From contig JBBAAI010000001.1 of NCBI GenBank assembly GCA_041658325.1, positions 154,869 through 218,868 on the forward strand: a DNA stretch of 64,000 nucleotides. Reading direction: 5' to 3'. This DNA comes from Minisyncoccota bacterium (lineage in GTDB: Bacteria > Patescibacteriota > Minisyncoccia > Phycocordibacterales > UBA9973). The translations under genes and the position numbers were made by a program. This document shows positions 45,545-55,728 of the stretch, one piece after another (position 1 is the first letter of the stretch; the number at the start of each line of letters is the position of its first letter). The notes beneath the pieces were generated by a model that searched no databases, had not been told where the DNA came from, and saw nothing but the letters and a program-made list of their open reading frames with translations.

Positions 45545-45850
45545 ATTTCCAGATGCACAACAGGTTAGCCATCGTCTTATTCGTCGTCCTTCGACCTCTA
45601 GGGGCCAGGACAAAACCAGTCATCAGGCTGCAACCCAAGAGGTAGTAGCCAACACAAAGAAAGAGAGGTGTAACCTCGGCGGGCGCAAGTGGATTGGGAC
45701 TCCACAATCACGTGATCGGGTTCGACTCCCGCATCCATGGCAACATGGAAGGGCTGTGGTTAAGTCCGCTACGAACAAGAAAATCCGAAATCCCCGGAAC
45801 CAAGAACCAAGGGGGTGCTGGCAAGCCGGCACCCCCTAATTTTTTTTAAT
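45545..45850 (+). ncRNA. unassigned ~300-nt structured RNA with own promoter and terminator; contains tRNA-like T-arm (candidate tmRNA-like or other)
   Basis: Sigma70-like ttgcaa-N17-tatgct at about 45513-45536; GC-rich body; GGGUUCGACUCCCG T-arm-like hairpin (45717-45731); ccatg GCAA catgg GNRA hairpin; terminal gggggtgctggcaagccggcaccccc + T8 terminator; no long ORF. Confidence 0.4.
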
Positions 45851-51723: not shown

Positions 51724-52134
51724 ATGACAACAACAGAAACAAAAATAAAAAAACCTAAAGCTCCAGTAAAACCTAAAGCTGGGGTATCAAAAGCCAAAAC
51801 TTCTTCTAAAACAGAAAAAGTTGACGGTAAGGTGATACTTCGTATTCGAGTTCGCGCTTACGAGAGCAAAATCTTAGATGCGTCTATTAAACAAATTATG
51901 GATACTGCTGTGCGTTATGATGCTGTGATTGTAGGACCTGTTCCACTGCCAATCGAAATAAAGAAATATACAGTTAATCGTTCTCCTTTTATTTACAAAA
52001 ACACACGAGAACAATTTGAAATAAGAGTGCATAAACGATTGATTGATATTATAAATCCAAACGCAAAGACCGTTGAGGCTCTGACGAATCTTTCGCTTCC
52101 CTCGGGAGTCGACATTGATGTCAAAATGATGTAA
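51724..52134 (+). CDS. rpsJ: 30S ribosomal protein S10 with Lys/Pro-rich N-terminal extension
   Basis: Core ILRIRVRAYESKILD...; about 35-aa basic extension. Confidence 0.9.
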   Translation: MTTTETKIKKPKAPVKPKAGVSKAKTSSKTEKVDGKVILRIRVRAYESKILDASIKQIMDTAVRYDAVIVGPVPLPIEIKKYTVNRSPFIYKNTREQFEIRVHKRLIDIINPNAKTVEALTNLSLPSGVDIDVKMM

Positions 52135-53730: not shown

Positions 53731-54570
53731 ATGAAAACATATAAACCAACAAGTAAATCAAGAAGACAAATGACTAACGTAAGTTATCGGGGAGTTCTAA
53801 CGACCTCTACTCCTTTGAAGTCTCTTACTTACGGATTTAGGCGTGCAGTCGGAAGAAATAGTGCTGGACGCATTACGATGAGACACAAGGGTAGCGGGCA
53901 CAAACGTCTCTATCGTCTAGTTGATTTTTTATATGACAAAAAAGAGATTCCAGCCAAAATAAAATCTGTTGAATACGACCCAAATCGTTCAGCATTTATT
54001 GGGCTTGCTGTTTATAAAGATGGAGAAAAAAGATATGTAGTGTTGCCAAAGTCTGTAAAACCCGGAGATTCTTTTATCGTATCTGCGAAAGCCCCACTTG
54101 CTCCCCTCAATAGATTGCCTCTCAAAAATATCCCAGTTGGAACTTTTGTTTATAATATTGAAATCAAGCCGGCTGGTGGAGCAAAGATTGGCCGTTCGGC
54201 TGGAATTTTCGCCCAAGTAGTCGCTAATGCTGATGGATATACTAATTTGAAAATGCCTTCAACGGAAGTCAGAAAAATAAATGAGAATTGTTGGGCTTGT
54301 GTTGGAACTGTTTCCAATGAAGAACATCACTTAGAAAATTATGGTAAAGCTGGACGCAGTCGCTGGAAAGGAATACGTCCAACTGTTCGTGGTACGGCGA
54401 TGAATCCTGTTGACCATCCGTACGGAGGAGGAGAAGGCAGACAAGGGCGCGGAACCAAACGTCCAAAAACTATGTGGGGTAAAGTTACTGGTGGACGCAA
54501 GACTCGTGGTCCAAAGAAATACTCCAACGTCTTTATTGTTTCTCGACGAAAGACAGGAAAGAATAAATAA
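53731..54570 (+). CDS. rplB: 50S ribosomal protein L2
   Basis: GTAMNPVDHPYGGGEG signature. Confidence 0.95.
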   Translation: MKTYKPTSKSRRQMTNVSYRGVLTTSTPLKSLTYGFRRAVGRNSAGRITMRHKGSGHKRLYRLVDFLYDKKEIPAKIKSVEYDPNRSAFIGLAVYKDGEKRYVVLPKSVKPGDSFIVSAKAPLAPLNRLPLKNIPVGTFVYNIEIKPAGGAKIGRSAGIFAQVVANADGYTNLKMPSTEVRKINENCWACVGTVSNEEHHLENYGKAGRSRWKGIRPTVRGTAMNPVDHPYGGGEGRQGRGTKRPKTMWGKVTGGRKTRGPKKYSNVFIVSRRKTGKNK

Positions 54571-54582
54571 AAATTAACTAAA

Positions 54583-54620
54583 AGAATCCCCGATAAGGGG
54601 ATTTTTAGTTGCTTTTTATT
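54583..54620 (+). terminator. intrinsic terminator after rplB (unusual mid-operon)
   Basis: aatcccc gata aggggatt hairpin + tttagttgctttttatt. Confidence 0.6.
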
Positions 54621-54663
54621 TTGAAAGTGTTATAATACTCTCTATCTATCTGAGGAGGTGTCA

Positions 54664-54837
54664 ATGTCGAAGAAGGTTCCGGCAAAGAGGAGAAGGTACA
54701 AGAGAAACCTGGAAAAGAAACAGCGCGAGGAGAAACTTGCGCGACAACAGGCTAAGGGGAGAGGGGTGCCGGCCGGTACTTTCCAAGATATTCAACCCGC
54801 TCTGAACAAGAGATTTAATGGGCGGGCACAAAGTTAG
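54664..54837 (+). CDS. small highly basic protein (57 aa), GC-rich, strong Shine-Dalgarno; inserted between rplB and rpsS
   Basis: gaggaggtg 5 nt upstream of ATG; MSKKVPAKRRRYKRNLEKKQREEKLARQQAKGRG...; below the 60-aa ORF-track cutoff so read directly from sequence. Confidence 0.5.
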   Translation: MSKKVPAKRRRYKRNLEKKQREEKLARQQAKGRGVPAGTFQDIQPALNKRFNGRAQS

Positions 54838-54852
54838 CTCTGTTTGGATCAC

Positions 54853-54899
54853 GGGCGTGTTGCGGGTTTGATTCCCCGGCACGCCCTTTGTTTTTATTT
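54853..54899 (+). terminator. intrinsic terminator after small basic ORF
   Basis: gggcgtg...cacgccc stem enclosing a nested cggg/cccg hairpin, then tttgtttttattt. Confidence 0.6.
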
Positions 54900-54971
54900 A
54901 AAAATTGACATTTTATTTGAATTTGCTATTATGAAACCAAGCTCGTTAGGAGCTTTTTGTTTGCTTAAATT

Positions 54972-55319
54972 ATGACTAGATCAATCAAAAAAGGATTAAA
55001 TGTTGACGAGAGGCTCTTAAAAAAGATTGCTGGCAAAAACCCGCTTCAGACTCCGATGATTAAGACCTGGAAAAGAGCCTGTGTTATTTCTCCAGAAATG
55101 CTGGGTTTTACTTTTGGTGTTTATAACGGCAAAACGCATTTAGAAGTTCTAGTTACGGAAGACATGGTGGGGCACAGATTAGGAGAATTTTCTCCAACCA
55201 AAAAATTCATGAAACACGGAGGAAAAATGCAGAAAGAACTTGAACAAAAGAAAAAAGAGGCCGAGATAACTCAAGCTAAATCAGCTACTGCTGCTGCAGT
55301 GGATGCTAAAAAGAAATAA
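54972..55319 (+). CDS. rpsS: 30S ribosomal protein S19 with C-terminal Lys/Ala-rich extension
   Basis: MTRSIKKG...GHRLGEFSPTKKF core. Confidence 0.9.
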   Translation: MTRSIKKGLNVDERLLKKIAGKNPLQTPMIKTWKRACVISPEMLGFTFGVYNGKTHLEVLVTEDMVGHRLGEFSPTKKFMKHGGKMQKELEQKKKEAEITQAKSATAAAVDAKKK

Positions 55320-55347: not shown

Positions 55348-55728
55348 ATGAAAGCTTTTTTAAAAAATTACAGACAATCCCCGAGGAAAGTTCGTTTAGT
55401 TGCTGGATTGATTAAGGGTAAAAACGTATCAGAGGCAATCGCTGAGTTAAATTTTTTAGCAAAACGTGCTGGGCTTCCGATCAAAAAACTTTTACTTTCT
55501 GCTGTTGCAAATGCAAAACAAATGGGTATTGAAGTAGATAATTTATTTATAAAAGAATTGCGAGTTGATAAAGGTATCGTAATGAAAAGAATGATGCCCG
55601 CAGCGATGGGTACAGGACACAGGATAAACAAGCGTACAAGTCACTTAAATCTTCTTTTAGCAGAAAAAGTTATAAAAAAACCAGCAAAAACGAAAGAAAT
55701 AAAAGCTAAGAAAGCAGTAAAAAAATAA
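55348..55728 (+). CDS. rplV: 50S ribosomal protein L22
   Basis: order; 126 aa. Confidence 0.9.
   Translation: MKAFLKNYRQSPRKVRLVAGLIKGKNVSEAIAELNFLAKRAGLPIKKLLLSAVANAKQMGIEVDNLFIKELRVDKGIVMKRMMPAAMGTGHRINKRTSHLNLLLAEKVIKKPAKTKEIKAKKAVKK

Follow-up and report, generated by a model that had tools for sequence, protein, structure and literature searches.

A hypervariable slot for small, Shine-Dalgarno-led genes between rplB and rpsS in the S10 operon of Candidatus Nomurabacteria

Introduction

Several ribosomal proteins of bacteria, among them bTHX, bS22 and bL37, are very short and very basic, easily escape annotation and are restricted to particular lineages, being conserved within their phyla. 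Hypervariable accessory hotspots between core genes are also familiar, as in phage 'moron' and anti-CRISPR loci and in flexible genomic islets, and the cassettes of integrons typically come without a promoter of their own. In Flavobacteria and other Bacteroidia, rpsU, the gene of the small basic ribosomal protein bS21, is the lone gene with a strong Shine-Dalgarno (SD) site in an SD-poor genome and is autoregulated through the availability of the anti-SD (PMC9976891; PMC7797042). Here we describe the junction between rplB and rpsS, the genes of ribosomal proteins L2 and S19, in the S10 operon of a 64-kb stretch of DNA from Candidatus Nomurabacteria, an uncultured lineage of the Patescibacteria or candidate phyla radiation (CPR); this whole stretch is called the window, and its coordinates are used throughout. 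The junction holds a small transcription unit with a 57-codon open reading frame (ORF), and in relatives the same position is a hypervariable accessory slot with allelic replacement, recognized by conserved flanks around content that cannot be aligned even between near-identical genomes. We favour, with moderate confidence, the reading that the window unit is one allele of this recombining slot, an accessory gene that is transcribed independently and translated from its SD into a polycationic helical-hairpin peptide. Nothing was found in the literature on the rplB-rpsS junction or on such cassettes in Patescibacteria.

The nearest functional analogy may be with rpsU of Flavobacteria. In both cases a small basic protein, predicted to be helical (57 aa here), is encoded among translation genes behind the strongest SD of the stretch; the two differ in that there is no sequence similarity between them and that the slot is hypervariable and sometimes empty. 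Because it is neither similar in sequence nor conserved, the window peptide is not a member of the bS21 family. With bTHX, bS22 and bL37 it shares being short, very basic and easily missed, whereas it occurs in one genome only, at a locus that is swapped between genomes whose flanks agree to about 97%. The slot resembles accessory hotspots in its fixed site between conserved genes, its many unrelated small proteins, each with promoter and terminator of its own, its mosaic combinations of recurring families and its block replacement in near-identical backgrounds, and departs from them in lying within a chromosomal bacterial S10 operon, in its almost uniformly polycationic products and in lacking any likeness to PHROG or PADLOC entries. 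The stretches read showed no regulator, integrase or phage surroundings, the window not having been searched for them. Type I toxin-antitoxin loci likewise consist of small orphan ORFs on short structured mRNAs with a strong extended -10 element and poor conservation, sometimes in tandem at intergenic hotspots; the window peptide, however, is hydrophilic and without a transmembrane segment, a crude consensus scan listed no minus-strand promoter in 54600-54950, and the SD of the cassette is not obviously sequestered in the predicted fold. Unlike an integron cassette, each slot cassette has its own promoter. The canonical S10 operon (rpsJ-rplCDWB-rpsS-rplV-rpsC-rplP-rpmC-rpsQ, with a single leader) retains its gene order in the window, but throughout the clade it is cut after rplB by a terminator and restarted before rpsS by a conserved promoter and leader hairpin.

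A Self-Contained Transcription Unit between rplB and rpsS

Both conserved anchors lie on the plus strand, rplB upstream (53731-54570; 279-aa ORF) and rpsS downstream (54972-55319; 115-aa ORF, with tblastn matches in relatives), separated by 401 bp in an operon whose gene order is fully kept and whose other junctions are all tight (1-28 bp). The L2 protein of the window matches L2 of metagenome-assembled genomes of Nomurabacteria and Paceibacterota with 84-92% identity. Directly behind rplB a terminator scan places an intrinsic terminator (54582-54615, plus strand) with a hairpin at 54582-54606 and a T run (-14.2 kcal/mol, z = -3.2; fold z-scores are those of the folding tool's own shuffles), and a sequence resembling it also follows rplB in L005, L012, L015 and L100 (L-numbers denote loci of relatives and WIN the window). 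Overlapping its end is a promoter, P1 (54609-54636, plus strand), read off the sequence, with the -35 element TTGCTT (54609-54614), a 16-nt spacer and the extended -10 element TGTTATAAT (54628-54636). P1 aligns with GTTGCTTT...TG(T/C)TATAA(T/C) of L151, L153, L100, L143, L083, L104 and L160; the consensus promoter scan overlooked it because its -35 element fits the consensus at just 3 of 6 positions.

The SD site GAGGAGGTG (54652-54660, plus strand) ends 3 nt 5' of an ATG and matches TAAGGAGGTG over 8 nt; its bases AGGAGGTG are this 8-nt match to the generic anti-SD complement. The ORF that follows comprises 57 codons and a stop (54664-54837, plus strand; ATG at 54664, TAG at 54835-54837) and specifies the peptide MSKKVPAKRRRYKRNLEKKQREEKLARQQAKGRGVPAGTFQDIQPALNKRFNGRAQS, with a net charge of +14; its translation, which begins MSKKVPAKRRRYKRNLEKK, is listed as 59 aa when started at the in-frame upstream GTG at 54658. 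The hairpin of the cassette terminator (54853-54899, plus strand) begins 16 nt past the stop codon and occupies 54853-54886; it has 13 pairs with a single bulge and the loop UUUGAUU, and a U run comes next (-24.2 kcal/mol, z = -4.8). Its counterparts in L153/L091 and L177 share 82-84% identity with it. GC content reaches 0.50-0.54 over 54650-54850, compared with 0.26-0.37 in the flanks and 0.36 in the window as a whole.

Transcription of rpsS would restart from a promoter of its own, P2 (54905-54932, plus strand; TTGACA, a 16-nt spacer, TATTAT and an upstream TG), which agrees with the consensus at 11 of 12 positions, reads TGCTATTAT in its -10 region and is kept throughout the close clade regardless of gap content. 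Behind it, at the extreme 5' end of the rpsS mRNA, stands a leader hairpin (54939-54960, plus strand; AAGCUC-GUUAG-GAGCUU, AAGCUCGUUAGGAGCUU) of 5-6 bp, followed by a U run. P2 and the leader hairpin are near-invariant in more than 90 loci whatever sits upstream, the hairpin differing among loci in its loop and, in L017, by a single compensatory change of the stem (GGCUC/GAGCC), and it could serve as a 5' stabiliser or as an attenuator-type regulatory leader for the S19-L22-S3 genes. A role of the cassette itself as a leader-peptide attenuator of the downstream operon was rejected, as rpsS has the near-consensus P2 between the cassette terminator and the gene; P2 is also kept in relatives with empty junctions.

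The cassette SD is the longest anti-SD match in the window. None of the 14 neighbouring translation genes of the tuf/S10/spc region exceeds a match of 3-5 nt, their leaders being A/T-rich and their starts without an SD including 51724, 52159, 53731, 54972 and 55348. Among the 66 long ORFs of the window none exceeds 6 nt, even with a generous choice of start codons, and 42 lack even a 4-nt match, so that this genome stretch is SD-poor. An earlier, sequence-only reading of this DNA had already pointed out the rplB terminator followed by a 57-codon ORF with a terminator of its own, the high basicity of the product, the GC content above that of the flanks and an SD far stronger than those of the neighbours, all of which we confirm; P1 and P2 had escaped it. 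Taken together, the junction holds a self-contained small transcription unit. Its ORF is probably translated and may have a function.

Hypervariability of the Junction and Block Replacement of Its Content

Relatives were represented by 80 species-representative loci, retrieved with rplB as query, and by 98 metagenome loci, retrieved by a DNA pattern made from the conserved promoter and leader of rpsS. The median spacing of rplB and rpsS is 809 bp, and it exceeds 100 bp in 46 of 51 relatives; at the nine other junctions from rpsJ to rpsQ the medians lie between -30 and 59 bp. Some of the more distant relatives have a gap longer than 3 kb, and a further 29 loci did not show rpsS within the retrieved DNA, which reached 3 kb in most. 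This junction is the only expanded one of the operon in the Nomurabacteria/Paceibacteria clade. The sequence-only reading had taken it that rplB runs directly into rpsS almost universally; the window is indeed anomalous against that usual arrangement, but the premise does not apply to this clade.

Close relatives, taken as those with an rplB identity of 84% or more, provide 67 distinct complete gaps, which span 96-2652 bp. Eight of these gaps are empty, the rplB terminator being followed directly by P2, and the others carry up to about four mini-cassettes, whose peptides are unrelated, small, encoded by GC-rich DNA and strongly basic. The design of a cassette is the same as in the window: an extended -10 promoter, an SD of 5-9 nt, a start codon 3-11 nt further on, a small ORF and a GC hairpin with a T run. 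Distant relatives have other, longer genes inside the gap. In L008 (3956-5300) these look like a HicA/HicB pair and in L012/L014 (3909-6205) like a large membrane protein and a superoxide-dismutase-like gene, both judged by eye only.

The clearest view of the exchange comes from L151 and L153. The 3' end of rplB (400 nt) is 97.5% identical between them, P2 with the leader 97% and the first 250 nt of rpsS 95.2%, whereas identity falls to 61% from the rplB stop to the start codon, a segment that includes P1 and the SD (shuffles: mean 45%, maximum 54%), and to 50% from the start codon to P2, that is, over ORF and terminator (shuffles: mean 46%, maximum 52%). In other pairs with flanks 90-92% identical, at most 19% of the gap core can be aligned. 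Cassettes that cannot be aligned within flanks about 97% identical must have been replaced rather than mutated in place, and for the class the content between the rplB stop and the -35 element of P2 is exchanged as a block, likely by homologous recombination in the conserved flanks.

For the window gap, matches in relatives are confined to the rplB terminator with P1 and to the cassette terminator with P2 and the leader, and the body of the ORF has none in the relatives' loci. Looking for conservation in relatives, as the sequence-only reading had proposed, thus gives a divided answer: the peptide sequence is absent, while parts of the cassette are kept. P1 and an SD of the GGAGGTG form persist in L151 and L153, which are the nearest relatives; the terminator is retained by L153 and L177. 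The window and its nearest relatives share just 82-84% identity in rplW-rplB DNA, and four-fold degenerate sites are saturated against most relatives; for the window itself, fast divergence and replacement are therefore inseparable.

Three side observations concern the composition of slots. In L001 (3925-4800, identical in L094) three cassettes stand in tandem, of which the first and the third have in common a promoter segment of 62 nt (87% identical) as well as the terminator tail CCCCCATCACTATTTTTA and differ in their ORFs, which suggests a duplication followed by replacement of the interior. In L005 a slot ORF (2762-2908) ends at a TAG that is TTG in the otherwise near-identical L156 and L168, where the ORF runs on to 85 aa and gains a C-terminal Cys motif common to L152; either the nonsense polymorphism is natural, or one of the assemblies contains a sequencing error. 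Finally, L179 (1-560) has a member of the 85-aa Cys-motif family, 88% identical, that is preceded by a P1-like promoter and an SD. The upstream 45 nt there are unlike the end of rplB, and downstream, instead of rpsS, come a gene of 437 aa with the Pfam families DegT_DnrJ_EryC1 and ABC_tran and a gene with a transglutaminase core, so that cassettes may exist outside the rplB-rpsS junction too.

Identity of the Peptide and Resemblance to Ribosomal Proteins

The size and charge of the peptide and its predicted helical hairpin (AlphaFold2 from the single sequence: helices 7-32 and 40-52, mean pLDDT, the predicted local distance difference test, of 81) are like those of small ribosomal proteins. 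Its gene sits among ribosomal protein genes and is the lone strong-SD gene of an SD-poor stretch, recalling rpsU of Flavobacteria (PMC9976891), all of which would agree with a genuine, unrecognised ribosomal or ribosome-associated protein of the lineage, comparable to bS21, bTHX, bS22 and bL37; a novel ribosome-associated small protein was among the possibilities that the sequence-only reading had envisaged. Database searches speak otherwise. Neither Pfam nor NCBIfam, at E up to 10, has a family, ribosomal or other, for the 57-aa peptide or for a 73-aa ORF on the opposite strand, and the check for an L34/L35/S21-like protein thereby came out negative. The bS21 profile (Pfam PF01165) does not match, and bS21 of E. 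coli and B. subtilis has no significant match to the window or to any slot peptide. A search of the PDB by sequence gave a designed-repeat artefact only, and Foldseek of the AlphaFold2 model against the PDB gave nothing.

No homologue of the peptide emerged from a word-indexed search of 5.8-billion proteins, from metagenome contigs, viral contigs or GenBank phages, and the sole match of an exhaustive phmmer search over 1.84 billion cluster representatives is a tandem-repeat artefact. It is carried by none of the 80 genome loci and 98 metagenome loci, not even those of the nearest relatives, and eight relatives have empty junctions. Since unrelated genes for small basic proteins occur by the dozen at this position in relatives, the locus is an exchangeable slot rather than the seat of a new ribosomal protein that is conserved. 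The version of this explanation in which the peptide is a conserved component of the ribosome is largely refuted, and we regard the explanation as a whole as exceedingly improbable.

Homology of the window peptide to other slot peptides is not established: BLASTP and shuffle tests among slot peptides were negative or marginal (window versus L003a, p = 0.02; window versus L112, E = 0.027 in a 129-sequence set). A local DNA likeness between the window and L002 was set aside, as it is restricted to the SD and start codon, which had been selection criteria.

Coding Signals of the Slot Genes

That the slots hold genes is best seen from the class as a whole. The 67 gaps contain 72 SD-led ORFs of 20 aa or more on the operon strand, compared with 17 on the opposite strand, and the median net charge of their products is +8; GGAGG/AGGAG motifs occur 200 times on the plus and 87 times on the minus strand. 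Several slot ORFs have been annotated by public gene callers. Most slot peptides are singletons, and some families recur across genomes in varying combinations (LPGWCRR, MCCPRRK, ...WLKxNPxVxxFFxxEAW, RRVPSLC...W, SARKMR and an 85-aa CxxxCxxCxxxxC protein). In suitably diverged pairs of these the ratio of non-synonymous to synonymous substitution (dN/dS) is low, at 0.14 for the pair L087/L167 (84 codons; synonymous divergence, dS, 1.18) and 0.15 for L081/L124, and this purifying selection in recurring families indicates that the class codes for protein. At class level the slot contents are genuine protein-coding genes. Having no homologue, the window ORF itself offers nothing to compare, and a selection test on it is impossible. 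What speaks for coding in the window is the class-typical design of the cassette, the persistence of P1, SD and terminator in the relatives named above, the weak evidence of the predicted helices, and the reach of the ORF: in WIN, L151 and L153, which have P1 and the SD in common, no stop codon interrupts it until 3-16 nt before the terminator (chance 0.08, 0.05 and 0.08; Fisher's combined p = 0.013).

Several observations weigh against a functional gene in the window. The length of the ORF is non-significant alone (openness against dinucleotide shuffles, P = 0.08), and the 73-aa ORF on the minus strand covers the same bases. With no homologue in any collection searched, there is no direct sign of selection on the peptide sequence; a high pLDDT obtained from a single K/R/E-rich helix sequence is weak evidence, and the proposed binding of nucleic acid is read from composition only. 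The RNA of the window cassette is moderately structured (z = -2.6) and sister cassettes are extremely hairpin-rich (z = -10.1 in L002), which would suit a role at the RNA level too. Lastly, the codon usage of the ORF, with a GC content at third positions (GC3) of 0.55 and an AAG:AAA ratio of 7:2, is unlike that of its host, represented by the ribosomal protein genes of the window (0.26; 48:160). This oddity is shared by the constrained slot families (0.65; 90:33); it is therefore typical of the class and no argument against coding.

Many of these points would be expected of a neutral proto-gene, a piece of GC-rich, hairpin-rich filler in the safe harbour between a terminator and a promoter, transcribed and translated merely through the strong promoter and SD and without a function of its own. 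GC- and purine-rich sequence has few stops and gives Arg/Lys-rich peptides by default, and some such ORFs might later mature into constrained genes. The orphan peptide, the chance of openness, the foreign codon usage, the open ORFs on both strands of the GC-rich island, the perfect hairpins within the ORFs of sister cassettes, the high turnover and the empty alleles would all fit. Nevertheless, we find this explanation unlikely in view of the strand bias of the SD-led ORFs (72 to 17), the approach of the ORFs to the terminator in three cassettes that share P1 and SD, the purifying selection on families of the same composition in the same slot, and the retention of promoter and SD across relatives whose neutral sites are saturated. 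The hairpins in question are well seen in L002 (3856-4180; identical in L119 and near-identical in L159), where a chain of perfect 7-10 bp GC hairpins runs through the cassette, several of them inside a 54-codon ORF; L159 differs from L002 by a 6-nt in-frame indel within the ORF.

Structured RNA as an Alternative Product

In place of a protein, the cassette might give rise to a non-coding small RNA, a stable structured transcript of about 250 nt whose SD-like purine tracts serve at the RNA level, for example by pairing with the 16S anti-SD or another RNA, the ORF being incidental. A GC-rich island in an AT-rich genome is what structural RNAs tend to form, and the fold z-scores of the window and L002, the excess of GGAGG/AGGAG on the plus strand, the lack of a homologue of the peptide and the existence of another GC-rich promoter-terminator unit with no SD-led ORF all lend themselves to it. 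Against this stand the lack of any Rfam family even at E = 10 and the interiors of cassettes with shared promoter and terminator, which conserve neither sequence nor length and so leave nothing to covary. Moreover, every cassette examined has a canonical SD 3-11 nt 5' of a start codon near the 5' end, and the recurring families evolve in the manner of proteins. A non-coding product is hence distinctly improbable in our estimation, and a translated accessory gene remains the reading that we prefer.

The sequence-only reading had likened a hairpin nested in the terminator to the T-arm of a tRNA. The hairpin is present, but its tRNA character is superficial: ARAGORN reports no tRNA and no tmRNA in 54571-54971, Rfam 15 has nothing at gathering thresholds and chance-level matches only at E up to 10, the best tRNA-type score is that of tRNA-Sec (13.7 bits against a threshold of 47, E = 8.1), and the loop UUUGAUU has U at the position of the conserved C56. 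In three homologous cassette terminators (window 54864-54876, L153 and L177) the 7-nt loops are UUUGAUU, UCCGAUU and UCCAAAC, with U at position 1 and A at position 5; they are compatible with a T-loop motif and, as related sequences, are not independent evidence for it.

The other GC-rich unit of the window lies at 45545-45845 (up to 0.60 GC), between a DEAD-box helicase gene and rpmB, and has a promoter-like site, a strong terminator and a perfect T-arm-like CGGGTTCGACTCCCG at 45711-45725. It contains no SD-led ORF, matches nothing in Rfam or ARAGORN, folds with a z of about -0.3 and is missing from the same junction in L115, where both genes share one terminator. A scan for GC-rich islands outside the slot is uninformative, since Gly/Arg-rich stretches of ribosomal protein genes also exceed the threshold. 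Elsewhere in the operon, S10 (136 aa, 51724-52134), S19 (115 aa, 54972-55319) and L22 (126 aa, 55348-55728) seem to exceed the usual bacterial proteins in length, with what look like Lys/Ala-rich N- or C-terminal extensions.

Foreign and Mobile Origins

The sequence-only reading also considered a horizontally acquired toxin-like peptide or the remnant of a mobile insertion, and a defence-related cargo belongs to the same line of thought. GC, GC3 and SD strength are all unlike those of host genes, close relatives have the cassette either entire or not at all, distant relatives have other genes in the same gap (including the HicA/HicB likeness of L008, judged by eye) and one family member stands behind a P1-like promoter in another downstream context, as would be expected of foreign or mobile DNA. 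Yet the only long-range inverted matches are A/T-rich terminator tails, not terminal inverted repeats, and no second copy of the cassette exists in the 64 kb or in related loci; a remnant of a miniature inverted-repeat transposable element or insertion sequence, or a multi-copy repeat, finds no support on these two grounds, target-site duplications not having been specifically looked for. A toxin-like nature is not supported, given the lack of a hydrophobic segment (the longest apolar run of the peptide is shorter than 5 residues), the lack of an antisense promoter in the crude consensus scan and the lack of a PADLOC match; PHROGs and phage and viral collections gave no match either, and P1 and the SD belong to the resident locus, being common to relatives. 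Foreign or mobile cargo is thus very improbable as an account of the window unit, which in the preferred reading is one allele of the slot.

Two related candidates were tried and rejected. A phage origin of two conserved slot families found no match in phage and viral collections, and a target of a diversity-generating retroelement was dismissed, as the window contains no repeat of the cassette above 13 nt in length; no further search for a reverse transcriptase was made.

Conclusions and Perspectives

In the mechanism that we propose, the extended -10 promoter P1 would start an mRNA of about 250 nt, the 8-nt SD would load ribosomes at the ATG at 54664, and the product would be a 57-residue peptide of net charge +14, predicted to form a helix-loop-helix, before the strong hairpin and U run 16 nt past the stop codon end transcription. 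With the slot flanks constant (the 3' end of rplB on one side; the rpsS promoter, leader and gene on the other), the interior would be swapped as a block through recombination in the flanks, and lineages would hence differ in carrying from zero to about four unrelated, GC-rich, SD-led genes for strongly basic peptides. Judging from its composition and location, the peptide may act by binding nucleic acid, whether RNA or the ribosome, as an accessory factor that is possibly involved in conflict.

A more far-reaching joint claim can be imagined, although we rate it as speculative and improbable: the slot could be a dedicated expression platform for fast-exchanged small polycationic proteins that are translated via a separate channel. 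In an otherwise SD-independent organism only slot mRNAs would carry long SDs, so that synthesis of slot peptides, by analogy with rpsU in Flavobacteria, might sense, or take advantage of, how available the 16S anti-SD is. The ribosome or RNA would be what the peptides act on, diversifying selection, such as would arise from conflict with phages or with the host of the episymbiont, would drive the swapping of alleles, and the slot would perhaps also be a nursery in which GC-rich hairpin filler is turned into new small proteins.

The feature is more interesting as a locus than as a single ORF. Hypervariable accessory hotspots are known as such; what is unusual here is the position within the S10 operon together with the foreign-looking signature of coding and initiation. 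The S10 operon is among the most conserved gene arrangements of bacteria, and a whole clade of the CPR interrupts it at a single junction, turning the gap into a hotspot of exchangeable mini-genes, which stand out from their host by a high GC3, by the strongest SDs in an SD-poor genome and by uniformly polycationic products. Many slot ORFs fall under common length cut-offs for annotation, the window ORF itself lying below the 60-aa cut-off of the ORF track. If the peptides are functional, organisms with minimal genomes would possess a large unannotated pool of small proteins, and the slot would offer a natural system in which to study the turnover or birth of small proteins and, possibly, SD-dependent specialised translation.

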